Shown here in pieces: positions 2,694 to 32,394 of a stretch of DNA of 64,000 nucleotides. The first letter of the stretch is position 1. Each line of letters begins with the position of its first letter. The DNA comes from Aggregatilineales bacterium. GTDB taxonomy: Bacteria > Chloroflexota > Anaerolineae > Aggregatilineales > Ch27. A program made the position numbers and the translations under genes. The DNA lies in NCBI GenBank assembly GCA_029976005.1, contig JARKOQ010000149.1, positions 68,400 to 132,399 of the forward strand. The letters are read 5' to 3'. The notes beneath the pieces are model-generated. The model saw only the letters and a list, made by a program, of their open reading frames with translations, searched no databases and was not told where the DNA came from.

Positions 2694-3248
2694 CTAAAAC
2701 AGATCACCGCTGGCCAGCGTCTCGGCCAGGGAGGGCTGGTGCAGGTCCCGTCCGGACAGGATCGGAGCCGACACCGGCCAGTCAATGCCGATCTGCGGAT
2801 CGTTCCAGGCGATACCGCGCTCATAGGATTTAGCGTAGAAGTCGCTGGTTTTGTACTGGAAGTCCACCGTCTCGCTGAGGACCAGGAACGCGTGCCCGAA
2901 GCCTTTCGGCACCAGGAACATCTGGTGATTGGCCTCGGAGAGCGTAACGGCATTCCACTGCCCGAACGTGGGCGACTCGCGGCGCAGGTCGACCGCCACA
3001 TCGAGGACTTCGCCCTGAGTCACCCACACCAGCTTGTCCTGAGCATAGGGGGGAAGCTGAAAATGAATCCCACGCAGCACCCCCCGCGACGAACGCGAGT
3101 GATTATCCTGCACGAACTCAATATCGATCCCGCCCTGTTCCCGGAAGACGCGCCGATTGTAGCGCTCCAGAAAGAAGCCGCGCTCGTCCGGATGCACGTC
3201 CGGCGTGATCAGCACCAAACCTTGCAGCGATAGGGGTTGAAAGATCAT
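2694..3248 (-). CDS. rfbC: dTDP-4-dehydrorhamnose 3,5-epimerase
   Basis: MIFQPLSLQGLVLITPDVHPDERGFFLERYN...GVLRGIHFQ...QDKLVWVTQGEVLDVAVDLR...FLVPKGFGHAF is a textbook RmlC cupin. Start taken at ATG 3248. Confidence 0.9.
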   Translation of the reverse strand: MIFQPLSLQGLVLITPDVHPDERGFFLERYNRRVFREQGGIDIEFVQDNHSRSSRGVLRGIHFQLPPYAQDKLVWVTQGEVLDVAVDLRRESPTFGQWNAVTLSEANHQMFLVPKGFGHAFLVLSETVDFQYKTSDFYAKSYERGIAWNDPQIGIDWPVSAPILSGRDLHQPSLAETLASGDLF

Positions 3249-3324
3249 GAAAGGGCTTGCCTCTCGGTTGAAATCAGGTCGCAAGCCCCCTCACAATACC
3301 GTCTGCCGGATGGAAAATCAACCC

Positions 3325-4737
3325 TTAGCTCAGCGCCTTCAGCCCTTCCAGGAAGCGCTCGGCCGCCTTGTGCGTGCGCTCCGGCGGCAGGGCATAGCTG
3401 AAGCGAATCCAGTTCGCCCCGGCCTCGCTGAAGTACACTCCTGGCACGACCGCGATCCCGTGCTCCTGGGCCAGGTACTCGCCCAGCCCGGCCGAGTCGG
3501 CGAAACCGCCCGCTTCGATCCAGCGCGTCACGTCCACGAAGGCGTAGTAGCCATCCCCGATCACGTACGTGAAGCCCTGTTCGCCCAGGAAGCGGCGCAG
3601 CCCGGCCCGGCTCTCCGCCGTCGGCCGCACAATCGACTCGCACGCCTCGCCGAAGCCCATCTCGTAGGCGGTGATCGCCACCGCCTGGCTGAAGAAATCC
3701 GGGATCACGCCATGTGAAGCCTGGCTGCTGATGAACTTGATCACGCCCTGATCGGCCAGGACGTGCGCGCTGCGAATATTGCTGGCCCCCAGGCTCTTGG
3801 TCAGGCCGTCCAGCACGATCAGACGCTTGCGCTCCTCCGGCGTGAAAGCCAGCAGCATCTCATTGATGTCGTTGGGCAGGCCGTCCGTCACCCAGTGATA
3901 GATCCAGTCGAAAAGCACGTAGGCCACTCCGGCCTCCAGGGCCGCCTTGGCCAGCGCGATCTGAGCAGTTAGGGGCATGGTGCGCCCGGTCGGGTTGTCG
4001 GGCGAGGTGATGATCAGGCCGCCAATTTTGCGCCCCTGGGCCGCCGCGAAGGCCACGCTCTCGGCCACGCCCTCCGGGGTGATCTTCCAGCCATCGGCGG
4101 GATCGCCCGGCGCGCGCAGCACGTTCATCCCGACCGCGTACGGCCCCCAGTTGTAACTGATCCAGGGTACCGCCGAAGTCAGCAGCGCGTCTCCGACCCG
4201 CCCCGTCCCCAGCCGGATCATGGCCTGGTAAGCCTTGATCAGCCCGTCACGGCCGCCCTGCACCGCCGCCACGTTGTCCGGCCCCCAGCCGGTGGCCGGA
4301 TCGAGCGCCCAGTAGGCCTCGGCGGTGGCCTTCCAGAAGCGCGGCGTGCCGTGCGGCGAATCGTAGGCCGTGCCCTGGGCCTGCTGGAGCCGCAGGGCCG
4401 CTTCCAGGATGTCCCCCGGCACGCCCGGCAGGCTCTCGCCGCCATCGCCCTGGCTGGCGTCGTACGTTTCCGCGTCCGGCCGCCCGACCTTCTGCCTGTA
4501 GGCGGCCAGCCCCTTCTTGATCATGAACATACGCGACGGCGGAATGGTCATCTGCCCGGCCGGATACCCGACCGCCGGGATCAGATGCGCATCGGGAACG
4601 GCAAACACAGGACGATCGCTCACGGTGGGCACTCCCTCTGGTATGCCATTCGGCAGGCTCACAGGCCCGCAAGGAACGGGAATATCAACTGTATCCGCTG
4701 CCCGGACGGAGTCAACGGCGGCTTTTACGATAGCCAT
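3325..4737 (-). CDS. PLP-dependent aminotransferase, class I/II fold (start uncertain)
   Basis: LIITSPDNPTG and the Lys motif LDGLTKSLGASNIRSAH, plus a C-terminal IRFSYA-type motif. Possible starts are TTG 4752, ATG 4737, ATG 4551 and ATG 4530, none with a clear SD. Confidence 0.75.
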   Translation of the reverse strand: MAIVKAAVDSVRAADTVDIPVPCGPVSLPNGIPEGVPTVSDRPVFAVPDAHLIPAVGYPAGQMTIPPSRMFMIKKGLAAYRQKVGRPDAETYDASQGDGGESLPGVPGDILEAALRLQQAQGTAYDSPHGTPRFWKATAEAYWALDPATGWGPDNVAAVQGGRDGLIKAYQAMIRLGTGRVGDALLTSAVPWISYNWGPYAVGMNVLRAPGDPADGWKITPEGVAESVAFAAAQGRKIGGLIITSPDNPTGRTMPLTAQIALAKAALEAGVAYVLFDWIYHWVTDGLPNDINEMLLAFTPEERKRLIVLDGLTKSLGASNIRSAHVLADQGVIKFISSQASHGVIPDFFSQAVAITAYEMGFGEACESIVRPTAESRAGLRRFLGEQGFTYVIGDGYYAFVDVTRWIEAGGFADSAGLGEYLAQEHGIAVVPGVYFSEAGANWIRFSYALPPERTHKAAERFLEGLKALS

Positions 4738-4936
4738 TGTGCACAATAGCAAAGGCGATTTTACTGCCCAATCCGGCCGGATGCATTACAATCACCCTGG
4801 CAGCTTGAGCCACATCTGAAATCCAGACGGACAGGCCGGTCACGGCATCTGTTTCCATCCAGCAGACCGGCCGCTTGCAACGTCTTGGGTTTTGACCAAG
4901 AACCAACCACCGATCACCTTTTTCGAGGAGAATCGC

Positions 4937-5830
4937 ATGACCACCGTCGGTTACATTGGCCTGGGCCTGATGGGCGCGCCGATCGCCCGCAACCTGATGA
5001 AAGCCGGCCACACGCTGGTCGTCCACAACCGCAGCCGCGCCATTGTCGACCAGCTCGTCGCGGAAGGCGCGCGCGCTGCCTTCTCGCCCAGGGAAGTCGC
5101 CGCGCAAGTCGAGATCGTGTTCACCAACCTGCCCGACTCGCCGGATGTCGAACAGGTCGCACTCGGCCCGGATGGAATCATCGAAGGCGCGCACCCCGGC
5201 CTGATCTTCATCGACAACAGCACGATCAAGCCGGAGACAGCCCGCCACATCGCGGCCGAGCTGGCGAAGGCCGGAATCGCGGCCCTGGACGCCCCGGTCA
5301 GCGGTGGGGACGTCGGCGCCAGGGCGGGCACGCTTGCGATCATGGTCGGCGGCGAGGAAGCTGCTTTCCAGACAGCCCTGCCGGTCCTCCAGGCGATGGG
5401 CAAGACCATCACCCACATCGGCGCGAGCGGCGCGGGCCAGGTGACCAAGGCCGCCAACCAGATCATGGTCGTCGCCCAGATGCTCGGCATGGCCGAAGCC
5501 CTGGTGCTCAGCCAGAAGGCCGGGGTCGACCCGGAGCGTGTCGTGCAGGCCATCAGCCGGGGCGCGGCCCAATGCTGGGCGCTGGACACCAAACCCCAGC
5601 GTATCTTCCGCCGCGAGCTGACGCCCGGCTTCAAGGCCCACATGCAGCACAAAGACCTGAACATCGTCCTGGATACCGGGAATGCGTACGGCATCCCCCT
5701 GCCGCTGACGGCCCTGGCCCAGCAGCTTTACCGGGCGATGCTCGCCGCCGGCAACGGCCACCTGGACAACAGCGCGGTCATCACCGTCCTGGAAGCGCTG
5801 GCCGGAGTCACCGTCGGCAAGGCCGAATAA
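4937..5830 (+). CDS. NAD(P)-dependent beta-hydroxyacid dehydrogenase (2-hydroxy-3-oxopropionate / 3-hydroxyisobutyrate reductase family)
   Basis: GAGGAG lies 7 nt before ATG 4937. Rossmann motif VGYIGLGLMGAPIARNL, followed by DAPVSGG and the GAGQVTKAANQ motifs of the family. Confidence 0.85.
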   Translation: MTTVGYIGLGLMGAPIARNLMKAGHTLVVHNRSRAIVDQLVAEGARAAFSPREVAAQVEIVFTNLPDSPDVEQVALGPDGIIEGAHPGLIFIDNSTIKPETARHIAAELAKAGIAALDAPVSGGDVGARAGTLAIMVGGEEAAFQTALPVLQAMGKTITHIGASGAGQVTKAANQIMVVAQMLGMAEALVLSQKAGVDPERVVQAISRGAAQCWALDTKPQRIFRRELTPGFKAHMQHKDLNIVLDTGNAYGIPLPLTALAQQLYRAMLAAGNGHLDNSAVITVLEALAGVTVGKAE

Positions 5831-5950
5831 CAAACGCCATACCGGCGCGATTGTTGGCGTCCGGCATGTTGGTATACAATGAACGCAACATCTGCGCCGC
5901 GGCCTGCACGTGCGGGCTGCGCCATGCCCGGTGAGGATGGAATCAGCGCC

Positions 5951-13536: not shown

Positions 13537-14754
13537 CTACAGGCCGGCTTCCCTGCGGAGCAGGTCGGCCTTGTCGATGCGCTCCCACGGCACATTCAGA
13601 TCGTCGCGGCCGAAGTGGCCGTAAGCGGCCACGGCCCGGTACAGAGGCCGGCGCAGGTCGAGGTCGCGGATGATCGCCGCCGGGCGCAGGTCGAAATACT
13701 TGCGCACCAGCTCCTCGATCTTGGCATCGCTGATCTTGCCCGTGCCAAAGGTTTCCACCGCCAGGCTGGTCGGATGCGCCACGCCGATGGCATAGCTGAC
13801 CTGAAGCTCGACGCGATCCGCCAGACCCGCCGCCACGATGTTCTTGCAGACGTAGCGCGCCATGTACGCCCCGGAGCGGTCCACCTTCGTCGGGTCCTTG
13901 CCGCTGAACGCGCCGCCGCCATGCCGGGCCACACCGCCGTAGGTGTCGACGATGATCTTACGGCCGGTCAGCCCGGCGTCGCCCATCGGGCCGCCGGTCA
14001 CGAAACGGCCGGTCGGGTTGACCAGGATGCGCGTCCGGTCGTCCAACAGCTCACCGGGGACGACCTTGCGGATCACGTGCTCGATGATGTCCGCGCGGAT
14101 CTGATCCTGGGTAACCTCCGGAGCGTGCTGGGTGCTGACGATGATCGTGTCCACGCGCACCGGCTTGCCGTAAGCATACTCGACCGTGACCTGGCTTTTG
14201 CCGTCCGGACGCAGGTATTCCAGCGTGCCGTTCTTGCGGACTTCGGTCAGGCGGCGGGCCAGCTTGTTGGCCAGGCTGCTGGTCAGGGGCATGAATTCCG
14301 GGGTTTCGTTGCAGGCGAACCCGATCATCATGCCCTGGTCGCCCGCGCCAATCGCATCGATCTGGGCATCGGTCATCTCGCCGGTTTTGGCTTCGAGCGC
14401 CTTGTCGACGCCCAGCGCGATGTCCGCGCTCTGTTCCTTGATGGACACGATGACGCCGCATGTCTCCGAGTCAAAACCGTACTTGGCGCGGGTATAGCCG
14501 ATCTCCTCGACCGTCTTGCGCGCCAGGCTGCCGATGTCGACGTAGGTGCTGGTGGTGATCTCGCCCATGACCAGGATCAGGCCGGTGGTCACCGCCGTCT
14601 CGCACGCCACGCGGGCGTCGGGATCATCCTTGATAATGGCGTCGAGGACGGCATCCGAAATCTGGTCGCAGATTTTGTCCGGATGGCCTTCCGTGACGCT
14701 CTCAGACGTAAAGTAATACTTCGGGGACGTCATAAATGTTGTATTGCTGCTCAC
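13537..14754 (-). CDS. metK: S-adenosylmethionine synthetase
   Basis: [51 protein letters not shown] 14754 lies 8 nt after AAGGAG; an alternative ATG is at 14733. Confidence 0.95.
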
Positions 14755-14867: not shown

Positions 14868-14890
14868 CTGGAACACGGCGGAATATCCAA

Positions 14891-15002
14891 TCATCTGCCA
14901 GAGGATGCCTCCTCTGCCGGAATTAGCACCTTCCTGGCCGATTGCGACAGGCCAGGGGTTGCCGCGGTTTCGTTGGGCCGGTCCCTCCACCGCTCTGGAT
15001 GA
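14891..15002 (-). promoter_or_regulatory. SAM-I (S-box) riboswitch aptamer upstream of metK
   Basis: The minus strand reads UCAUCCAGAGCGGUGGAGGGACCGGCCCAACGAAACCGCGGCAACC...GGAAGGUGCUAAUUCCGGCAGAGGAGGCAUCCUCUGGCAGAUGA. This matches the conserved S-box cores AGAGxGGUGGAGGGAxxGGCCCxAxGAAxCC..GCAACC and GGUGCUAAxUCC, with P1 closure UCAUC/GAUGA. Confidence 0.9.
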
Positions 15003-15218
15003 CGTATGCAGTTGGCATGCGGTATGGTAGCATGCCAGCCATGCCGTGTCAAGCCAACTCGAATCGGGCCATTCCGAATTGGGAGCAAGGTCATACTCCA
15101 AGTCGGAAATGCCACCCTCGAATCCGGCCAGCGCCGGCTCCCCGCCGGGGAGCGAGCGCGATTGATTTTGACCATATCGGGGGTACACTAGAAGGGGTAG
15201 GCGAGGAGAAAACGTGGC

Positions 15219-23961: not shown

Positions 23962-24927
23962 TCAGCCGGCCGGGATGGCGGACGGATTGACGACGTTGTC
24001 GTACTTGTGGTTCAGGAGCGCGTCGCGCACCAGTTCGGCCGCCTGACGGGCCACGGTCAACTGGGCCTCGACCGTACTCGCACCCAGGTGGGGGGTGTGG
24101 ATCACGCCCTTCAGGCCGACCAGCGGGAAGCCCTCGGCGGGCGGCTCGGTCGGATAGACGTCCAGTGCGGCCCCGGCGACCTTGCCGCCGCGAATCGCTT
24201 CCGCCAGCGCCTCGGAGTCGATCAGGCTGCCGCGCGCCGCATTGATGATCCGCACGCCCGTCTTCATTTTCGCCAGGGAAGCCGCGTTGATCATCCCCTT
24301 GGAGGTCTCGTTGGCGGGCGCGTGCAGGGAGATGATGTCGCTCCGCGCGTACAGCTCGTCCAGGGAAACCGGCTCGACGCCACACTCGCGCAGGGACTCC
24401 GCCGTCGCGACCGGATCGAAGCCGATCGTAGTCATCTCGAAGGCCTGGGCGCGCCGGGCCATCGCCTTGCCGATGCGGCCGACGCCGACCAGACCCAGGG
24501 TCTTGCCGCACAGCTCGTTGCCCATGAAGCTCTTGCGATCCCAGCGGCCTTCCAGCATCGACTGGTGCCCGGCGGGAATGTGCCGCACCAGGGCCAGCAT
24601 GAGGCCAAAGGCGTGTTCGGCGGCCGCGATCGTGTTGCCGCCGGGGGTGTTCATCACCACGATGCCGCGCGCCGTCGCGGCGGGCACGTCGATGGTATCC
24701 ACCCCGGCCCCGGCCCGCGCCACCACCTTTAGCCGGGGCGCGGCGGCAATGAAGTCCGCATCGACCTTGGTGGCGCTGCGCACGATGAGCGCGTCGGCAT
24801 CGGCGGCTTCGGCCAGCGCGACGTCGCGGGCAAAAGAGCCGGCTACAATGGTGAACTGCGGTTCGTGCTGAAGAATCTCCAGGCCCACGGAATCAAGATT
24901 ATCGGAAATCAGGATTTTGAAACCCAT
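23962..24927 (-). CDS. D-isomer-specific 2-hydroxyacid dehydrogenase (D-3-phosphoglycerate dehydrogenase-like, no ACT domain)
   Basis: GGGGGAG lies 8 nt before ATG 24927. Motifs GKTLGLVGVGRIGKAMA, NAARGSLID and HTPHLGAST. Confidence 0.85.
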   Translation of the reverse strand: MGFKILISDNLDSVGLEILQHEPQFTIVAGSFARDVALAEAADADALIVRSATKVDADFIAAAPRLKVVARAGAGVDTIDVPAATARGIVVMNTPGGNTIAAAEHAFGLMLALVRHIPAGHQSMLEGRWDRKSFMGNELCGKTLGLVGVGRIGKAMARRAQAFEMTTIGFDPVATAESLRECGVEPVSLDELYARSDIISLHAPANETSKGMINAASLAKMKTGVRIINAARGSLIDSEALAEAIRGGKVAGAALDVYPTEPPAEGFPLVGLKGVIHTPHLGASTVEAQLTVARQAAELVRDALLNHKYDNVVNPSAIPAG

Positions 24928-25006
24928 GACGGCATCTCCCCCCAGGGTAGGAAGAACAAATGGCCCACTGGTAAGTGTAGCGGGCAATCGCGCTCCGTGG
25001 AGATGG

Positions 25007-25492
25007 TTAACTTATCTGAACCCGGATCTCCAAAGCGCCCAAACGCAGCACGTCGCCGCTGACCAGCAAGTGCTGGAAATGGGGCTGCAACCGCCGGCCG
25101 TTCAGAAATGTGCCGTTGGTGCTTTCGAGATCGGCTACGAAGACCGCGCCGCGATCGACTCGCAGGATGGCATGTTGCCGGGAGACGCCCTTCTCACCGC
25201 CCCCGGCCAGAGCCAGATCGATCGCTTCCCGCGCGGCATCGGGAGGAACACAGCGGCCAAGCAGGATGGAAGCCTCACCCTTGACCGAACACTCATACGC
25301 CTGCTGGTCCGCACTGAGGGTAATCGTATGGAGGGGACCGCTGCCCACGCCAGATTTGGTCCGAGGCTGGTTGCTGGACTCGCCCTTGATCTGGAGACGC
25401 CGGGTCAGCATGTCATCCGACTGAAGCGCGCCACAGGTCTGGCAAAGCAACTCGCCTTCCCGGATAGGTGAACCACATTGCGAGCAGTTCAT
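25007..25492 (-). CDS. FHA-domain protein with N-terminal zinc ribbon
   Basis: MNCSQCGSPIREGELLCQTCG (CxxC...CxxC), then LLGRC...VSRQHAIL...DLESTNGTFLNGRRL (FHA core). Confidence 0.85.
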   Translation of the reverse strand: MNCSQCGSPIREGELLCQTCGALQSDDMLTRRLQIKGESSNQPRTKSGVGSGPLHTITLSADQQAYECSVKGEASILLGRCVPPDAAREAIDLALAGGGEKGVSRQHAILRVDRGAVFVADLESTNGTFLNGRRLQPHFQHLLVSGDVLRLGALEIRVQIS

Positions 25493-25543
25493 GTCACCAC
25501 TTGCCTAAGAGTTTAACTAAGCATTTCCTTCAGTCTAACCCAG

Positions 25544-25574
25544 TTCACGAATTATTTCCGGAAAAATTCGTGAA
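25544..25574. promoter_or_regulatory. 31-nt AT-rich near-perfect palindrome (candidate operator or structured RNA)
   Basis: TTCACGAATT-ATTTCCGGAAA-AATTCGTGAA: perfect 10-nt arms with TTTCCGGAAA, itself a palindrome, at the centre. It lies 52-82 nt upstream of the FHA start codon. Confidence 0.4.
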
Positions 25575-25690
25575 TCTTCTGACAATTCCATTGTCACTCC
25601 GGAGGACGCCTCCGACCACCACCCATCAGTACCAATCCACGCGTTCCGCCGCGGGGACGACCGGACAGACTCGCCGGCGTGGCGCCAGGT

Positions 25691-27457
25691 CTATTCGGCC
25701 TGGGTTGGCTCCGGCACCGTCTCGATCTCGCGGCGGAGGGCCTCAAGCTGCGCCGACAGCCCATCCAGGATCTGCACGTCGCGTTCGGCGGCCTGGGCGA
25801 TGACCTCGAACCGGCTGAACACCGGATCAAGAATCTGGTGGCCGTATTGCAGCAGCCGGCTACGCTCGCGCTCCGTCAGCTCGGCCATCGCCTGGCCGTA
25901 ACCGCGCTCGAAAATGTCCATCTGCCCGTTGAAATCCCGCTTGACATCCTGGCGCAGCCGCCGCCAGTAGCTCAAGGCAAAGCCCCCGCCACCCAGAGCA
26001 AACGCCACGCCGCCCACAAACCCTATCATCGCCAGCGGAAAAACCGTGAGCGCGCCCGGCGTGGCGATCCCCAGCAGGGCGGCGATCAGCCCGCCCAAAC
26101 CGACTCCCAGGCTGGTCCCCAACCCGGTCACGTTGGTCTTGAATCGCTCCTGCATGACGTTCAGCATCTGGGTGTTGGAATAGGCCCCCATCTCGACATC
26201 CGCGATGGCGATCGCTTCCTGAAGGGCCTGGCGCTGTTCGGAGTAAACGCCGCCGTCCACCCCGCGCACGTCCTGCTGCAAGATGTCGTCGAGCTGGCTG
26301 AGCCGCCGCACGATGTTTTGCCAGTAGCGGCGGTTGCTATCGACCAGGGCGTTGACATAATCGTTCGAAATGTCGTTGATCTGATCCAGCGCCCGGCCGA
26401 TGACGTGCTCCTCGAACTCGCCGCGCAGCGCCTCGTCGTTGGAAGGCTGGCCGGGCATCCGCACCTTGAAATTCGCGTCGATGAAGCGCATGCCGCGCTG
26501 GCGCACCTCCCCCAGCAAGCGGCCGATCTGGGCCGTACCCGCCGCCAACTGGGCGTCCATCGCCGCCGCGTGAGTCTCCAGTTCCTGTTCGATCTGGGCG
26601 GTCTGATCGCGGTTGCGGCCAATCAGATCCAGGCGGGTCTCCAGCCGCTCGTGGTGCTTCGCCATCTGGCGCTGGGCCAGGTCAAGCTGGGCCCCCAGCT
26701 TCTGGCGGGCGGGCGGCACCTGCTCGAAGGTGGCCCGCAGGTGGGCGCGCACCGCCTCCAGACCGCTGTCCCCCTCCCCCGCCAGGGCGCGTTTGGCCGA
26801 GACCATGAAGATCAGCGGCTTGAGGCCCAGGCGCGTCTCAAGCTGGGACTGGACGAAGCGGCGCACGTCGGCCTGCTCGCGCGGCTCCAGCAGATCGGTC
26901 TGGTTGATGACGACCACGATCTTTTTGCCAAAGTCGCGGATCAGCTCCAGATACAGCCGGTCGGTCTCCCCCAGAGCACGCTTGGCCGACATGACGAAAA
27001 CCACCAGATCGCTGCGATGCAGGAAATTGCGGGCGATCTCCTCGTGCTGGCGGAAAACCGAGCCGGTGCCGGGCGTGTCGACCAGGACGACGCCCGCCCC
27101 GCCCAGGCCGGGGTGCGTCCATTCCCGCACGCCATCGTCGCGCAGCACCGAGCGCCGCGAGACGGCCTCGGCGTAACGAATCAGCTCGATCACCTCGGTA
27201 GTCGGCGTGATGCCGGTCGGCAGCAGGTTATCCTCCAACAGGGCATTGATGAAAGACGATTTGCCCGCGTTGAACTCGCCAACCACGACCACCATGAAGA
27301 ACATGTAGCGCAGGTCGTCGGCTACCTCGCGCAGGCGCTGGCGATCGGCCTCGCCCTCCGGCGAAAGCCCGGCCAGCGCGTCCCCAACCTCGTGCAGCAG
27401 GCGAATCTCCCGCTCGCGCAGATCGGCCAGGGCGCCTTCCAGAACGTGGTCGTTCAT
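25691..27457 (-). CDS. Bacterial dynamin-like GTPase (downstream member of pair)
   Basis: G1 GEFNAGKSSFINALL, G2 TPTT, G3 LVDTPG, G4 INQTD. Hydrophobic hairpin GLIAALLGIATPGALTVFPLAMIGFVGGVAFALGGGGFAL. ATG 27457 overlaps the upstream stop (ATGA) and is preceded by GGAGTGAGG. Confidence 0.85.
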   Translation of the reverse strand: MNDHVLEGALADLREREIRLLHEVGDALAGLSPEGEADRQRLREVADDLRYMFFMVVVVGEFNAGKSSFINALLEDNLLPTGITPTTEVIELIRYAEAVSRRSVLRDDGVREWTHPGLGGAGVVLVDTPGTGSVFRQHEEIARNFLHRSDLVVFVMSAKRALGETDRLYLELIRDFGKKIVVVINQTDLLEPREQADVRRFVQSQLETRLGLKPLIFMVSAKRALAGEGDSGLEAVRAHLRATFEQVPPARQKLGAQLDLAQRQMAKHHERLETRLDLIGRNRDQTAQIEQELETHAAAMDAQLAAGTAQIGRLLGEVRQRGMRFIDANFKVRMPGQPSNDEALRGEFEEHVIGRALDQINDISNDYVNALVDSNRRYWQNIVRRLSQLDDILQQDVRGVDGGVYSEQRQALQEAIAIADVEMGAYSNTQMLNVMQERFKTNVTGLGTSLGVGLGGLIAALLGIATPGALTVFPLAMIGFVGGVAFALGGGGFALSYWRRLRQDVKRDFNGQMDIFERGYGQAMAELTERERSRLLQYGHQILDPVFSRFEVIAQAAERDVQILDGLSAQLEALRREIETVPEPTQAE

Positions 27458-29379
27458 GCCTCACTCCGTTCCCAGAACCCGCCAATCTCCCCCGCGAAGG
27501 CCGCGAACTCCTCCTCCATCCGGCGCAAATCCCCCGCCAACTCGGCCTGCCGGGCCGTCTGCGCGGCGATCAGGCGCGTGAAGGGCGCGGCGACGTCCTG
27601 ACGCATCCGAACGCCGGCGTTGATCTGTTCCGCCGCGGCTTCCCTGACGATCGCCTGATAGCGCTGCCCCAGTTCGAACATCCGCCGGGAAAAGGCCCTG
27701 GCGATCTGGTTGCCTCGGAAGGCCATCAGCGCCACGCCGATCAACATCAGGCCAAGCGCCCCCATCACCAGCAAGATCGGAATGCCCACGTTCGACCAGT
27801 CGACCGCCAGCGTGCCCAGCAGCACGATCGCCACCACCACCGCCAGTTCCCAACCGGCCAGCAGCACCAGGCTGTTGCGCACCGCCTGGTCGAGCCGGCC
27901 CGGCTCGACCTTGCGCGCCTCGCGCTCGACCTCGTCCAGATCGGTCCGAATCCGGCGCAGCGGCTCCCGGTTGTAGCTGACCGGCGGGCGCACCTCGCCG
28001 ATGACTCTGTCCTGCAAGGGCTGCGGCAGGGCCTTGATCGCCTGAGTGGTATGGGCCGCCAGATCGTCGAGGTCCTGCATGTCGCGGCCTTCGATGCGCG
28101 GGCCGAGATCGGCCACGATCTTCGCCAGCTCGTCCAGCGGCCGCATAACCTCGCGCCCGTCGAAAGCGGTCTGGGCGCGCGAGGGGCGGCCAAGCCCGCG
28201 CGCGATCCGGGCCAGTCCCAGCAGTTCGCCCAGGCCCGCCGTGAACTGCCCCAAGGCCCGCGTGGGCTGGAAGAGTTCCCGGATCGCATCCTCGCCGCGC
28301 ATGGAGGCCTCGGCGAAGACCGCCGCCACCTGGCTCATAGATGCCTCCACCAGGGTTTCCTGCTGCTGGCGGGCCACGACAATCTGGGCGTCGATGTTCT
28401 CCTGCACGCTGCGATGGCGATCCAGCGCCTGCTGCTGGAGTTTGACTTCGGCCTGCGCCCTGGTGAGGACGTTCCGGGCGATTTGCAGCGGGGTCTGGAG
28501 CTTCTGGCGCAGCCGTTCCCGATCGTCCAGCGCCCCGACCAGGTACTCCTCGAACGCGGCCATGCCGCTCGCCTGCCAGGCGACGGCATCAGGCGGGTTG
28601 GACCGGCGAGCGGCCAGACCTTGCCGCGCGGACACCAGGAACACATCCGGCTCCGCCCCCAGGTGCAGGCTGGACTGCTCCACGACGAAATCACGAACGG
28701 TCGCGCGCTGCTCGTCATCCAGCAGATCGACCTGGTTGACCACGACCAGCACGTGCTTGCCGTAGGACTTGAGCGTCTCCAGATACTTGAGGTTGCTGGC
28801 GGAAAGGGCCTGCGTTGCCAGCATGACCAGCACCACCCAGTCCGAGCGATGCAGGAAGGAGTCCGTGCGCTCGCTGTGCTGGGCGAAGACCGACTCGAGG
28901 CCGGGGGTATCCACCAGGCTGATCTGGCGCAGCAGGGGCGCGGGGTGGAAGATGGTCTCGACCCCATCCTGAGCGCCCGCCTTCTCGAAGGCGTCCCCGT
29001 GGCGGAGGATCGCCACCTGGCTGGTGGTCGGCACCGGCCCGGTGACGAGCACTTCGTCGCCCAGCAGAGCGTTGATCAGGCTGGACTTCCCTACCCCGAA
29101 CGGCCCGATCAGGGCCAGCAGAAAAGGATGGTCGGAGTGAAAAACGGCGTCCCGCGCCTGGGCTATCGCCGCCGGCTCCAGCCCATCGACTCGCGGCAGG
29201 GTATCCACCAGGCGCAGCAAGGCAGTATTTTCCCGGCGGCGCAGTTCGTCGTACGCGACCAGAATATCCGGAGTGGGTGAAAACAATTTGCCAATCACAC
29301 TCACCACCATGAACCATAAGGCCAGACGCCCAGGATTATACCACCCGGCCGAACCGCGCAGAGACTCTTCAAACTGCAA
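27454..29379 (-). CDS. Bacterial dynamin-like GTPase (upstream member of pair; start uncertain)
   Basis: G1 GPFGVGKSSLINALL, G2 VPTT, G3 LVDTPG, G4 VNQVD. Hydrophobic hairpin near aa 505-560. Start is either TTG 29379 (10 nt after the ferredoxin stop) or ATG 29310. Confidence 0.85.
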   Translation of the reverse strand: MQFEESLRGSAGWYNPGRLALWFMVVSVIGKLFSPTPDILVAYDELRRRENTALLRLVDTLPRVDGLEPAAIAQARDAVFHSDHPFLLALIGPFGVGKSSLINALLGDEVLVTGPVPTTSQVAILRHGDAFEKAGAQDGVETIFHPAPLLRQISLVDTPGLESVFAQHSERTDSFLHRSDWVVLVMLATQALSASNLKYLETLKSYGKHVLVVVNQVDLLDDEQRATVRDFVVEQSSLHLGAEPDVFLVSARQGLAARRSNPPDAVAWQASGMAAFEEYLVGALDDRERLRQKLQTPLQIARNVLTRAQAEVKLQQQALDRHRSVQENIDAQIVVARQQQETLVEASMSQVAAVFAEASMRGEDAIRELFQPTRALGQFTAGLGELLGLARIARGLGRPSRAQTAFDGREVMRPLDELAKIVADLGPRIEGRDMQDLDDLAAHTTQAIKALPQPLQDRVIGEVRPPVSYNREPLRRIRTDLDEVEREARKVEPGRLDQAVRNSLVLLAGWELAVVVAIVLLGTLAVDWSNVGIPILLVMGALGLMLIGVALMAFRGNQIARAFSRRMFELGQRYQAIVREAAAEQINAGVRMRQDVAAPFTRLIAAQTARQAELAGDLRRMEEEFAAFAGEIGGFWERSEA

Positions 29380-29388
29380 GAATGGGGG

Positions 29389-29640
29389 TTACTTTACCCG
29401 GCCGTAATATGCATAGTTGGCGTGAATGTCCGCAAGCAGGAAATCCGGCACCTCAGCCTCCGGCCAGATGGCGTTGTATGGACAGGCAAGCCGGCACAAC
29501 CCGCAGTCGATGCACGCCAGCGGATCAATATAGTAATACGGCCATTCGTCCGGCGGGTTGCCCGCCTGGATGCAGCCAACCGGGCAGACCTCGGCGCACC
29601 CGCCGTGCCGGTTGCACAAGCCGGTGATAACGTGGGTCAT
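29389..29640 (-). CDS. 7Fe-type ([3Fe-4S][4Fe-4S]) ferredoxin-like protein
   Basis: Cys pattern C9-x5-C15-x3-C19P...C43-x2-C46-x2-C49-x3-C53P parallels FdxA-type ferredoxins. The ATG overlaps the upstream stop (ATGA). Confidence 0.85.
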   Translation of the reverse strand: MTHVITGLCNRHGGCAEVCPVGCIQAGNPPDEWPYYYIDPLACIDCGLCRLACPYNAIWPEAEVPDFLLADIHANYAYYGRVK

Positions 29641-31031
29641 CCCCCACCGCCGGCCAGGAAATCACTCAGGGGACGGTTCTGGGGGCCGCTTACCACATGG
29701 CGATCGACCAGTTCGCGCGTCCCCGCCACGTTGAGCTGATTGAACAGGAACGTCAGCCGCTGCTGCCATGTCTCGCGAATGTAGCCGCGCACATCCTCCC
29801 CCAAGGCCCACAACTGCTCCTTGAATGGGCCGAGGGCGCGCTTGCGCTCCCGGTAGTAGAACTGCGCCGCCGATTCGTCCGGCCGCCGGCGGCCGGCGTG
29901 CTGGGCATCCAGGTAGGCATACATCTCGCGCCGCAGGCCGTACGGCAGCGCCGGGTGTTCGAACAAACTGTTCTGGAAGTCCGTGGCGAGATGGATCTCG
30001 GCCGTCTGGCTCTGGATGAACTTGTCGAAGGCGCTCGGCGGCAGGGTACTCGCGCCGTGCTGGACGGACCCGGCCAGGCCATACTCGCGCGCCACCTGGG
30101 AGAGGCGCAGCAGCGCGCCGAAATCGAGCGCGATGCTCGCCACCCGCCCATCCGGCAGGAGCAGCCCGCCCTTGAGCGTGCCCGTCTGAACCGTGACCTT
30201 GCTCAGTCCGGGAACATGCTCGCCCAGGCAGCGCTGGAAGCCCTCCAGAAAAGCGCGCAAATCGGCCTCGGTCGAGTTGGCGCTGGCCTGATCGCCGATC
30301 TCGCCGCCGACGCCAATCGTGATCCCTCCCGGTTGGTGGGCGCGGATGAACGCGGTCAGTTCGGCGGTGAGGGTGTAATTGTCGCGCTGCTGGTGACTCG
30401 CGTTTTTGTGGCCCACCTTGACAAGCGTCGACGCGTCCAGGTCGAAGTGGTAGAAGCCCGCCCGGATAGCCTCGACGATCAAGGCCTGGAGGGCCTTCAG
30501 CTCGGAACCCGCGTCACGGTGGTAGGCGTCCGCGACGATCTTGAAGTGGTCGCCCTGAATGAACACCGGGCCGCGATATCCCACCTGGATCGCCCCGGCC
30601 AGAATGCAGGCTGTGTACTCGGCCGGTTCCTGGGAGGTATAGGCCATCTCGGACCGGGCCAGCTCCAGCACGAAGGCCCCCGCGCGCCGGTTGAGCGCCG
30701 CCCCAAAGACGACCTGGGCCATATCATAGGGCAAGGCGCGCATGTTGAACGCGGGCACGGTGAAGGCCGGTTCCACCTCGCCGCGCCCTCGCGCCCTATA
30801 CAGATCGTGGATCGAAGCGGGGAAAATCTCCAGCCCGGCGGCGATGTGCCAGATCAACCAGCGCGCGGTCGCCCGTTCCGGGTCATGGCCAAAGACGGCC
30901 ACCCGTGTCAGATCGTCCAGGACCGGCCCGCGCAGTGCTTCAATCCGGCTCACGAGCAGCCGGGGGTACTCCTCCAGCAAGGCACTCCCGACCAGCGGAG
31001 CCAGGAGATCATCCAACGCCCTGACCAGCAT
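29637..31031 (-). CDS. Class II ketose/fructose-bisphosphate aldolase family protein (long form)
   Basis: GGAGGAG lies 6 nt before ATG 31031. Motifs FTVPAFN, FIQGDHF (LHLDH-like), FDLDAS, GGEIGD and VQHGASTLP follow the order of PF01116 motifs. Family-level call only. Confidence 0.6.
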   Translation of the reverse strand: MLVRALDDLLAPLVGSALLEEYPRLLVSRIEALRGPVLDDLTRVAVFGHDPERATARWLIWHIAAGLEIFPASIHDLYRARGRGEVEPAFTVPAFNMRALPYDMAQVVFGAALNRRAGAFVLELARSEMAYTSQEPAEYTACILAGAIQVGYRGPVFIQGDHFKIVADAYHRDAGSELKALQALIVEAIRAGFYHFDLDASTLVKVGHKNASHQQRDNYTLTAELTAFIRAHQPGGITIGVGGEIGDQASANSTEADLRAFLEGFQRCLGEHVPGLSKVTVQTGTLKGGLLLPDGRVASIALDFGALLRLSQVAREYGLAGSVQHGASTLPPSAFDKFIQSQTAEIHLATDFQNSLFEHPALPYGLRREMYAYLDAQHAGRRRPDESAAQFYYRERKRALGPFKEQLWALGEDVRGYIRETWQQRLTFLFNQLNVAGTRELVDRHVVSGPQNRPLSDFLAGGGG

Positions 31032-31242
31032 CACGCACTCCTCCAGGCCCGGCCGCTCAAAATGCAACCGGAACACTCGTAATCCTATTCTACTCGATCG
31101 GCGCGCTCATTGAGTATTTTGTACCAAAACCCTTGTTTTTCATGTGGCCTGTTTGTGGTAGTATGTATCTGGCCTCACAGACGATCGTGGTCAGATCACA
31201 CAGAAATTGCGCAGTTTCATATGTGTTCAAGGAGAACCCCCT

Positions 31243-32394
31243 ATGCGTATTGCAGTGTTGACAGGGGGAGGTGACGTTCCAGGCCTCAACCCTGCAATCA
31301 AAGCTATCGTCAATCGCGCGATTGACAACGGCTACGAAGTCCTCGGCATTCGCCGGGGCTGGGCCGGTTTGCTGGAATACAATCTGGAGGACGACCGCGA
31401 CAACTGGCGCTGCGTGATTCCGCTGGACAAGCAGGCCGTTCGCCGCGTCGACCGTTCCGGCGGCACCTTCCTGCACACCTCGCGTACCAATCCGGGCCGT
31501 GTCAAGCCCAAGGACATCCCTGATCTGCTGCGCGAAGAAGGCAAGGAATATACCGACATCCAGGACTTTACGCCGCACGTGCTGAAGGTCATCGAGAAGC
31601 TCGGCATCGACTGCCTGCTCCCGATCGGCGGCGACGACACCCTGAGCTACGGCGAGCGCATGCACAACGAAGGCTGCCGGGTGATCGCCATCCCCAAGAC
31701 GATGGACAACGACGTCTACGGGACGGACTACTGCATCGGCTTCTCGACCGCCGTCACGCGCAGCGTCGAGTTCATCCACAACCTGCGCACGTCCGCCGGC
31801 TCGCACGAGCGGATCGCCGTGGTGGAGCTGTTCGGCCGCAACTCCGGCGAAACCTCGCTGATTTCGGCCTATCTGGCGGGCGTCGATCGCGCCCTGATCT
31901 CCGAAGTCCAGTTTGACGTGGAGAAACTTGCCGAACTCGTCCTCCGTGACAAGCTGGATAACCCCAGCAACTACGCCATGGTGACGGTCTCGGAAGGCGC
32001 TTCTCCGATCGGCGGCATGGTCATGGAGCGCGGCGAAGCCGACGCCTACGGCCACCGCAAGCTGGGCGGCATCGGCGAATGGCTGGGGGAGAAGCTGGAA
32101 GAACTGACCGGCAAGCGCATCCTCTACCAGCAGATCGGCTACCTGATGCGCAGTGGCGTGCCAGACTCGCTCGACCTGATGGTCGCCGCCAACTACGCCC
32201 AGATGGCGATGGGCCTGGTGGAACGCGGCGAGTCGGGCCGGTTGGTCTGTCTGCAACGCGGCGTGTACAGCGACATCCCGATTTCGACCCTGTCCCAGGG
32301 CAAGAAGCGCGTCAACGTGCCCGAACTGTACGACGCCGACCAGTATGTCCCCAAGGTGCGGCATGTCTTCGGCATGCCGATGTTCCTGACCTAG
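31243..32394 (+). CDS. 6-phosphofructokinase, PPi-dependent-type signature
   Basis: AAGGAG lies 8 nt before ATG 31243. Motifs [23 protein letters not shown] (Asp where ATP-PFKs have Gly104), PKTMDND (Lys where ATP-PFKs have Gly124) and MGR-like VELFGRNSG. Confidence 0.9.

Follow-up and report, generated by a model that had tools for sequence, protein, structure and literature searches.

Five genes on the minus strand of a 64-kb stretch of an Aggregatilineales genome (contig JARKOQ010000149.1; the whole stretch, 65.7% GC, is referred to here as the window) encode, in the order in which they would be transcribed, an aldolase-like protein, a 7Fe-type ferredoxin, two dynamin-like GTPases (dynamin-like proteins, DLP2 and DLP1), and an FHA-domain protein with a zinc ribbon. 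These labels, proposed in an initial annotation made from the sequence alone, are borne out by minus-strand open reading frames (ORFs) and by Pfam matches. The annotation had also read the first four genes as a single translationally coupled unit, in which the ferredoxin might serve as a redox input. The most probable reading (roughly 0.7) is instead that separate known modules have come to lie side by side in this one lineage, in an inherited gene order, and do not form a four-gene machine; the annotation's other suggestion, that the linkage might be one of mere operonic convenience, is thus the one favored by the evidence.

Three modules would be present. The first would be a fast-evolving paralog of a ~470-aa class II aldolase family, with one of the three canonical zinc histidines lost, whose gene, facing a divergent gene for a pyrophosphate (PPi)-type phosphofructokinase (PFK), would be translationally coupled to that of a small 7Fe-type ferredoxin. 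The second would be a heterotypic DLP2–DLP1 pair, the counterpart of the two halves of a DynA-type protein. It would have a ribosome-binding site and probably a promoter to itself; an ATGA overlap between the two genes would couple their translation, such that both subunits are made together. By inference from characterized relatives, the hydrophobic hairpin of each subunit would insert into the cytoplasmic membrane, a hetero-oligomer would form, and GTP binding and hydrolysis would drive membrane tethering, fusion, or repair. The third would be the FHA/zinc-ribbon protein, with a regulatory region of its own.

Conservation of Gene Order

Whether the aldolase-ferredoxin-dynamin-dynamin order is kept in other genomes had been raised in the initial annotation; it proves to be confined to one narrow lineage of Anaerolineae. 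This lineage is represented by eight genomes (the window, L081, L082, L083, L084, L164/165, L169, and L170), with DLP1 64–92% identical to that of the window. The four-gene order aldolase-ferredoxin-DLP2-DLP1 is found in six of them and ferredoxin-DLP2-DLP1 in all eight, all of one collinear lineage. The collinear block comprises a dozen or so genes: a glycosyltransferase, PFK (on the opposite strand), the aldolase where present, ferredoxin, DLP2, DLP1, FHA, a phosphoglycerate-type dehydrogenase, a hypothetical protein, and an aminotransferase, with Mur and Ddl ligase genes further upstream. PFK is in the same place, and 82–96% identical, in 8/8 genomes. Because this wider neighborhood is equally collinear, adjacency is uninformative as to function: that of ferredoxin and DLP2 is conserved no better than that of PFK or the glycosyltransferase, and carries no functional information beyond shared descent.

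Outside the lineage, the components are found apart. A scan for the aldolase, with one genome per species, gave at least 599 matches, and the neighbors were checked in the best 80 of these at least 599 loci, which come from Gemmatimonadota, Chloroflexota, Acidobacteriota, Desulfobacterota, and other groups at 44–53% identity and do not include the window organism's species. None of the 80 has a ferredoxin, DLP, or FHA match by tblastn, and there is no ferredoxin-like ORF within 3 kb of the aldolase at any of the 76 loci with enough flanking sequence. One Caldilineaceae aldolase locus adjoins a PFK.

DLP1 homologs are common in Anaerolineae, and some ten DLP-pair loci (DLP1 44–51% identity) keep the DLP2–DLP1 tandem with no aldolase, ferredoxin, or FHA match nearby. 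Three loci with DLP pairs of ~50% identity (L168, L171, and L172) have in common a conserved neighborhood of another kind: the divergent upstream neighbor encodes a GAF/guanylate-cyclase or ornithine-decarboxylase protein, and MgtC, histone-deacetylase-family, and AAA ATPase genes are found downstream. At a sister locus (L166, DLP1 62% identity), DLP2 and DLP1 are separated by an inserted MmeI-type restriction-modification gene on the opposite strand (2991–5858), and no ferredoxin lies in the ~1 kb of upstream sequence covered; judging from this insertion, the DLP pair tolerates being split into separate transcription units. Ferredoxin homologs outside the lineage (52–57% identity, at two distinct loci) are in unrelated contexts, with no DLPs. 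The arrangement thus does not recur in phylogenetically distant genomes beyond general synteny.

Within the lineage, the aldolase is the variable member and the ferredoxin-DLP2-DLP1 trio the constant one: L169 and L170 have PFK, ferredoxin, DLP2, and DLP1, and lack the aldolase. In a DLP1 neighbor-joining tree these two genomes do not form an outgroup, L170 pairing with the aldolase-bearing L084, so the aldolase has been either lost twice or gained more than once. In the corresponding aldolase tree, the lineage copies are not clearly monophyletic (that of L164 shares 60% identity with a copy from an unrelated Anaerolineae genome, and 55% with the window's), but such a tree is unreliable under rate acceleration, and does not discriminate between a single ancestral aldolase and repeated insertion.

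Gene Junctions and the Start of DLP2

The features of the region are listed here from the divergent PFK gene to the FHA gene.

31207–32394, plus strand: PFK, divergent neighbor (Pfam PFK 233 bits; NCBIfam PFK_mixed 276 bits, under its cut-off)
31032–31206, no strand assigned: divergent intergenic region between PFK and the aldolase-like gene, 175 nt, 49.7% GC
29637–31031, minus strand: aldolase-like protein, 464 aa (ORF and Pfam PF01116)
29389–29640, minus strand: 7Fe-type ferredoxin, 83 aa (Fer4 families and similarity to 7Fe ferredoxins)
29299–29388, minus strand: ferredoxin-DLP2 spacer, 90 nt (multi-genome alignment)
27454–29298, minus strand: DLP2, dynamin-like GTPase, 614 aa from the conserved GTG (Dynamin_N 77.5 bits)
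25691–27457, minus strand: DLP1, dynamin-like GTPase, 588 aa (Dynamin_N 81 bits)
25493–25690, minus strand: DLP1-FHA spacer, 198 nt (AT-rich in its FHA-proximal half)
25007–25492, minus strand: FHA-domain protein with an N-terminal CxxC...CxxC zinc ribbon, 161 aa (FHA 60 bits)

Two of the junctions are overlaps, at exactly the positions first annotated: the aldolase-like stop codon overlaps the ferredoxin ATG (ATGA, 29640–29637), and the DLP2 stop codon overlaps the DLP1 ATG (ATGA, 27457–27454). Among co-directional bacterial genes, no class of overlap is more frequent than the four-nucleotide ATGA, and one alone is not unusual.

The junction between ferredoxin and DLP2, first given as ~10 nt, is different. 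The shorter figure is an artifact of taking the longest ORF, in which TTG 29379 is merely the first possible DLP2 start. Protein similarity to the closest relative (DLP2 92% identical) starts at residue 27–28 of this ORF; the called DLP2 genes of relatives begin 87–94 nt after ferredoxin; and a (G/T)TG-ATY start, equivalent to GTG 29298 in the window, is conserved in 8/8 lineage loci (spacer alignment, six genomes extended to eight). From this conserved start, the gap is therefore 90 nt; an in-frame ATG at 29310, which is window-specific, is the earliest plausible alternative, and would make it 78 nt. Stop and start codons thus overlap at two junctions, and are separated by 78–90 nt at the one between ferredoxin and DLP2.

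The spacer appears to contain signals of its own. A Shine-Dalgarno-like box, GGTGGTGA, lies directly 5′ of GTG 29298, and there are similar purine boxes before the starts in relatives. An extended -10-like sequence, TGGTATAAT, is found at 29343–29335; either TATAAT or TATGCT is present 33–44 nt 5′ of the DLP2 start codon in 8/8 lineage loci, the remainder of the spacer being poorly conserved. Exact TATAAT has six sites in all on the two strands of the 64 kb. This candidate -10 was found by comparative alignment alone, and a two-hexamer promoter scan and a terminator scan over 24900–31300 returned nothing above shuffled expectation. Because of the 90-nt spacer, with its Shine-Dalgarno-like and -10-like boxes, the region is two translationally coupled pairs, and not the single coupled unit first described; DLP2–DLP1 probably has its own promoter within the spacer. 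When the entire window was scanned with Rfam, the spacers yielded no RNA element, and the sole match was a SAM (S-box) riboswitch at 14888–15005 on the minus strand (85 bits; gathering score, 44).

The Dynamin-Like Pair

Both GTPases match Pfam Dynamin_N well above its cut-off of 27 bits (DLP2 77.5, DLP1 81). The initial annotation had described G1–G4 motifs and a hydrophobic membrane hairpin in both. What is found in each is G1 (GxxxxGKS), G3 (DTPG), and G4 (NQxD), together with a double hydrophobic segment: in DLP2 these motifs read GPFGVGKS, DTPG, and NQVD, and in DLP1 GEFNAGKS, DTPG, and NQTD, the latter set being invariant in an alignment of 14 DLP1 sequences. The candidate hairpins, taken as segments averaging above 1.6 in Kyte-Doolittle hydropathy over 19 residues, span residues 473–529 of DLP2 and 443–496 of DLP1.

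An AlphaFold2 model of DLP1 (pLDDT 74, with low confidence in the hydrophobic tip) has as its top Foldseek matches the bacterial dynamin-like protein (BDLP) 2J68, IniA 6J72, Cj-DLP1/2 5OWV, and LeoA 4AUR, over about 640–730 columns. By this model, DLP1 is predicted to have the full-length BDLP architecture of GTPase, helical neck and trunk, and membrane-binding tip; for DLP2, the same architecture is supported at the sequence level. The solved structures nearest by sequence to both proteins are Campylobacter DLP1/DLP2, followed by Nostoc BDLP, IniA, and the mitofusins.

The pairing itself is well kept. The DLP2–DLP1 tandem persists from 92% down to 44% DLP1 identity, and across the lineage the two genes are joined by an ATGA overlap or separated by a gap of no more than 15 nt. 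DLP2–DLP1 is an ordinary operon-paired BDLP, of a kind widespread in Chloroflexota.

Assignment to more specific families was not obtained. The pair scores 56 and 71 bits with the DynA equivalog model NF052648, for which the cut-off is 1600 bits, and 16–19 bits with the LeoA/HP0731 family (NF041922), for which it is 325. The PADLOC LeoA and LeoBC models score 61–68 bits on the DLPs, indicating only remote relatedness; PADLOC finds nothing for the aldolase-like, ferredoxin, or FHA proteins, and no defense-island context is visible.

One lineage contig, L083, carries a 1203-aa fused DLP2–DLP1 ORF that at first glance suggests a DynA-type fusion. This candidate was rejected. Relative to its 90%-similar sister L082, L083 has one extra A (GGAATTC in place of GGATTC) at 13560–13600, just before the conserved EIGGFWE C-terminus, and the L082 contig, from the same run of ENA assembly accessions, has obvious frameshifts in PFK, the glycosyltransferase, and DLP2. 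The apparent fusion probably results from an indel made in the assembly of a long-read contig.

The Ferredoxin and the Dynamins

The ferredoxin is supported by Pfam Fer4 families. Its cysteine pattern is C9-x5-C15-x3-C19P followed by C43xxC46xxC49xxxC53P; that is, the first motif is without its second cysteine (3Fe-4S type), and the second, CxxCxxCxxxCP, is complete. It aligns over its full length with the solved 7Fe ferredoxins 1BC6, 1BQX, and 1H98 (residues 4–78 to 3–74 of 77; E 4e-13), and scores below the NCBIfam FdxA cut-offs (NF058577, 47.5 vs. 65; NF045490, 50.1 vs. 135; NF045480, 45.6 vs. 125). The sequence fits the 7Fe label, with putative 3Fe-4S and 4Fe-4S clusters.

Several observations weigh against reading the ferredoxin and the DLP pair as separate modules. 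The spacer between them is without a terminator-like site or stable hairpin (terminator scan; RNA fold z = +1.0), so that read-through co-transcription is possible. The promoter call is of a -10-like hexamer alone, with no convincing -35, at a site that the two-hexamer scan missed. The lineage is sampled by eight genomes, all of them uncultured metagenome-assembled genomes or metagenome contigs. Finally, ferredoxin-DLP2-DLP1 is kept in every one of these, including the two without the aldolase and L169, in which the downstream side is rearranged.

The last of these points, with the lack of a terminator, also speaks for an alternative in which the ferredoxin is a dedicated partner of the DLP pair, the three forming a functional triad in which the ferredoxin would report redox or iron status or dock on the DLPs, with the aldolase an optional passenger. 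The apparently small size of the ferredoxin subfamily would be in keeping with such a role: a word-seeded search scored 61 candidate sequences, several of them on contigs shared with DLP1 homologs. However, the same retention is seen for PFK and the glycosyltransferase, and is explained by shared ancestry; outside the lineage, as described above, DLP pairs occur without the ferredoxin and the ferredoxin's homologs without DLPs; and the conserved spacer has -10-like and Shine-Dalgarno-like boxes of its own. The proteins themselves also offer no evident site for receiving a redox signal, although a protein-protein contact with the ferredoxin may exist all the same. Neither DLP has a cofactor motif or any cysteine, and 113/120 DLP1 homologs are likewise cysteine-free; with no cysteines, the DLPs have neither a thiol switch nor an Fe-S ligand set by which to take a ferredoxin signal. 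A literature search found no publication linking bacterial dynamins with ferredoxins.

A triad of this kind is accordingly considered unlikely, and its more specific form, in which the ferredoxin has been recruited to couple redox or iron status to GTP-driven membrane remodeling, distinctly improbable, with the 8/8 retention of the trio as the point in its favor. If true, such coupling would be a link not described for any dynamin-family protein. The redox input suggested at first thus has no positive support beyond co-inheritance, and is weakened by the cysteine-free DLPs. Two kinds of evidence that the initial annotation had itself named as counting against a functional linkage have largely been obtained: the order is absent outside the lineage, and a candidate internal promoter lies between ferredoxin and DLP2.

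The Aldolase-Like Protein

The Pfam PF01116 (F_bP_aldolase) match is marginal (27.5 bits, against a cut-off of 25.5), and TIGR00167 gives 23 bits against a cut-off of 216. The start at ATG 31031 is backed by 464-aa homologs aligned from residue 1, and there is a GGAGGAG Shine-Dalgarno sequence a few bases 5′ of it. The best Foldseek matches of an AlphaFold2 model (pLDDT 89, pTM 0.92) are class II aldolases (FBA, SqiA, and AgaY), with target-normalized TM-scores of 0.7–0.8; the predicted fold is the class II aldolase TIM barrel. A family search returned 8000 matches, typically of 470 aa and labeled by their sources as class II fructose-bisphosphate aldolase. This ~470-aa family has no close solved relative, weak sequence matches being found to GatZ and AgaY alone, with GatZ (2FIQ) the best. 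No description of the long aldolase family in Anaerolineae was found in a literature search.

The zinc ligands of class II aldolases are His83, His180, His208, and Glu134 in AgaY/SqiA numbering (PMC10665668). A profile alignment to AgaY places the QTGTSHGG motif of the long family on GTAH(180)G and its VQHGAST on VLH(208)GAS. In the window protein, residue 287 is lysine (QTGTLKGG) where the family has the histidine of QTGTSHGG, the equivalent of AgaY His180. The equivalents of His83, Glu134, and His208 are kept, in D-H, GGEIG-Glu, and QHGAS-His motifs, leaving two of the three zinc histidines. The position is replaced in all six lineage copies, by lysine in the window and L081, threonine in L082 and L083, leucine in L084, and valine in L164; the histidine is kept in 115/115 other top homologs and in 80/80 genome loci (195/195). 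The L084 copy is also without the GGEIG glutamate, a DxD motif, and the His208 equivalent.

Across the lineage, the aldolase-like copies are only 47–82% identical, compared with 82–96% for PFK. Their ratio of nonsynonymous to synonymous substitutions (dN/dS) is 0.13–0.19, vs. 0.04–0.115 for the neighboring genes; because these values are far below 1, the gene is still under purifying selection. The simplest reading is that the protein has a relaxed or changed function and is not encoded by a pseudogene, being perhaps an altered-metal enzyme or a non-catalytic paralog; catalysis has probably been altered or lost. The lineage would then offer a natural variant of a large ~470-aa family in which a zinc ligand is gone and purifying selection is kept, and hence a candidate pseudoenzyme or altered-metal aldolase.

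Non-catalytic class II aldolase paralogs have a precedent in GatZ/KbaZ, and GatZ is the best solved match of the window protein by sequence. This precedent would fit another alternative: the aldolase-like protein, as a repurposed enzyme or non-catalytic subunit, and the ferredoxin, as its Fe-S protein, might make up a functional pair of their own, independent of the dynamins. The two genes are joined by an ATGA overlap in 4/6 aldolase-bearing genomes and separated by 18–24 nt in the other two; loss of the His180 equivalent is confined to the copies adjoining this ferredoxin; and a dN/dS well below 1 suggests a protein that is still useful. However, two genomes keep the ferredoxin though they lack the aldolase; the lost-histidine position is free to vary (K, T, L, or V), and the motif losses in L084 look more like decay than like a new active site; and no known aldolase-ferredoxin partnership was found. 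Such a pair seems unlikely.

For the arrangement as a whole, the aldolase is dispensable, since it is absent in L169 and L170, is the fastest-evolving member, and has lost its His180 equivalent. That all four genes are one system, a sugar-phosphate or redox-linked membrane-remodeling operon, is very improbable: they share one strand, with short or overlapping junctions at 2/3 boundaries, no terminator between them, and an order conserved in six genomes, but the phyletic pattern largely refutes it (the aldolase is missing in two lineage genomes, and the order is absent outside the lineage), the 90-nt spacer puts promoter-like and Shine-Dalgarno-like elements before DLP2, and the aldolase active site is degraded. 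Read as separate modules in an inherited order, the unfamiliar four-gene arrangement would be a case of synteny within one uncultured lineage, and a caution against over-reading gene order. Only two points seem worth following up: the aldolase subgroup without the histidine, and the ferredoxin-DLP-DLP trio that stays constant.

The FHA Gene and the Flanking Genes

The FHA protein scores 60 bits with Pfam FHA; its zinc-ribbon family matches (19–20 bits) are under cut-off, and the CxxC...CxxC pattern is at residues 3–20. The spacer separating its gene from DLP1 (25493–25690) has the 198-nt length first annotated, and the AT-richness noted then is concentrated in the 108 nt nearest FHA, which are 40% GC, against 54% for the spacer as a whole. 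It contains a 31-bp near-perfect palindrome at 25544–25574 (TTCACGAATTATT-N5-AAAAATTCGTGAA, plus strand) and a 17-bp palindrome at 25580–25596 (TGACAAT-N3-ATTGTCA), which look like operators, as well as a -10-like box (TAGACT) and a Shine-Dalgarno-like box (GTGGTGA). In the spacer alignment, an element TTCACGAA...TTCGTGAA and the sequence GATTAGACT are conserved in L081, and in part in L082 and L083; the same is true of the 31-bp palindrome. The FHA gene follows DLP1 in 7/8 lineage genomes, and none of the dynamin pairs outside the lineage has it nearby. It is most reasonably regarded as a separate gene under independent regulation.

The FHA gene is followed downstream by genes for a 2-hydroxyacid (phosphoglycerate-type) dehydrogenase, a small hypothetical protein, and an aminotransferase. 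At the other end of the region, the PFK translation carries GGDDT and PKTMDND motifs, which we take to be the Asp and Lys signature positions that mark PPi-dependent PFK; NCBIfam places the protein in the mixed-substrate PFK group, under all cut-offs.

Comparison with Known Systems

Among the metabolic proteins, the ferredoxin has the same cysteine arrangement as the short 7Fe ferredoxins of the FdxA family from Bacillus schlegelii (1BC6/1BQX) and Thermus thermophilus (1H98), except that its first loop is two residues shorter (C-x5-C, not C-x7-C). The aldolase-like protein is ~180 residues longer than FBA or AgaY.

For the dynamin-like pair, there are several points of comparison. Nostoc BDLP1 (2J68), mycobacterial IniA/IniC (6J72), and LeoABC of enterotoxigenic Escherichia coli (4AUR; PMC4159319) have the same architecture of GTPase, helical neck and trunk, and membrane paddle by Foldseek; the setting of the window locus is neither one of inducible resistance nor a pathogenicity island.

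In bacteria, DLP genes typically occur as pairs within an operon, and their products can act as heterotypic, membrane-tethering oligomers (PMC6104087). The best-matching example is Campylobacter jejuni DLP1/DLP2 (5OWV/5OXF; PMC6104087), in which, as in the window, two paralogous dynamin-like GTPases are encoded side by side in one operon. Of the solved structures, this pair is the one that both window DLPs match best by sequence (55–57 bits), with a full-length fold match, at 12–16% identity over the whole length. The window proteins differ from it in each having a long double hydrophobic segment, and their complex formation and membrane tethering are only predicted.

Bacillus subtilis DynA is a two-headed, fused BDLP that acts in membrane fusion and in antibiotic and phage tolerance (PMC8844932). 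Unlike DynA, the window DLPs are encoded by two separate genes; the NCBIfam DynA model aligns with DLP2 in its first half (positions 43–94) and with DLP1 in its second (764–950), in the same order as the genes.

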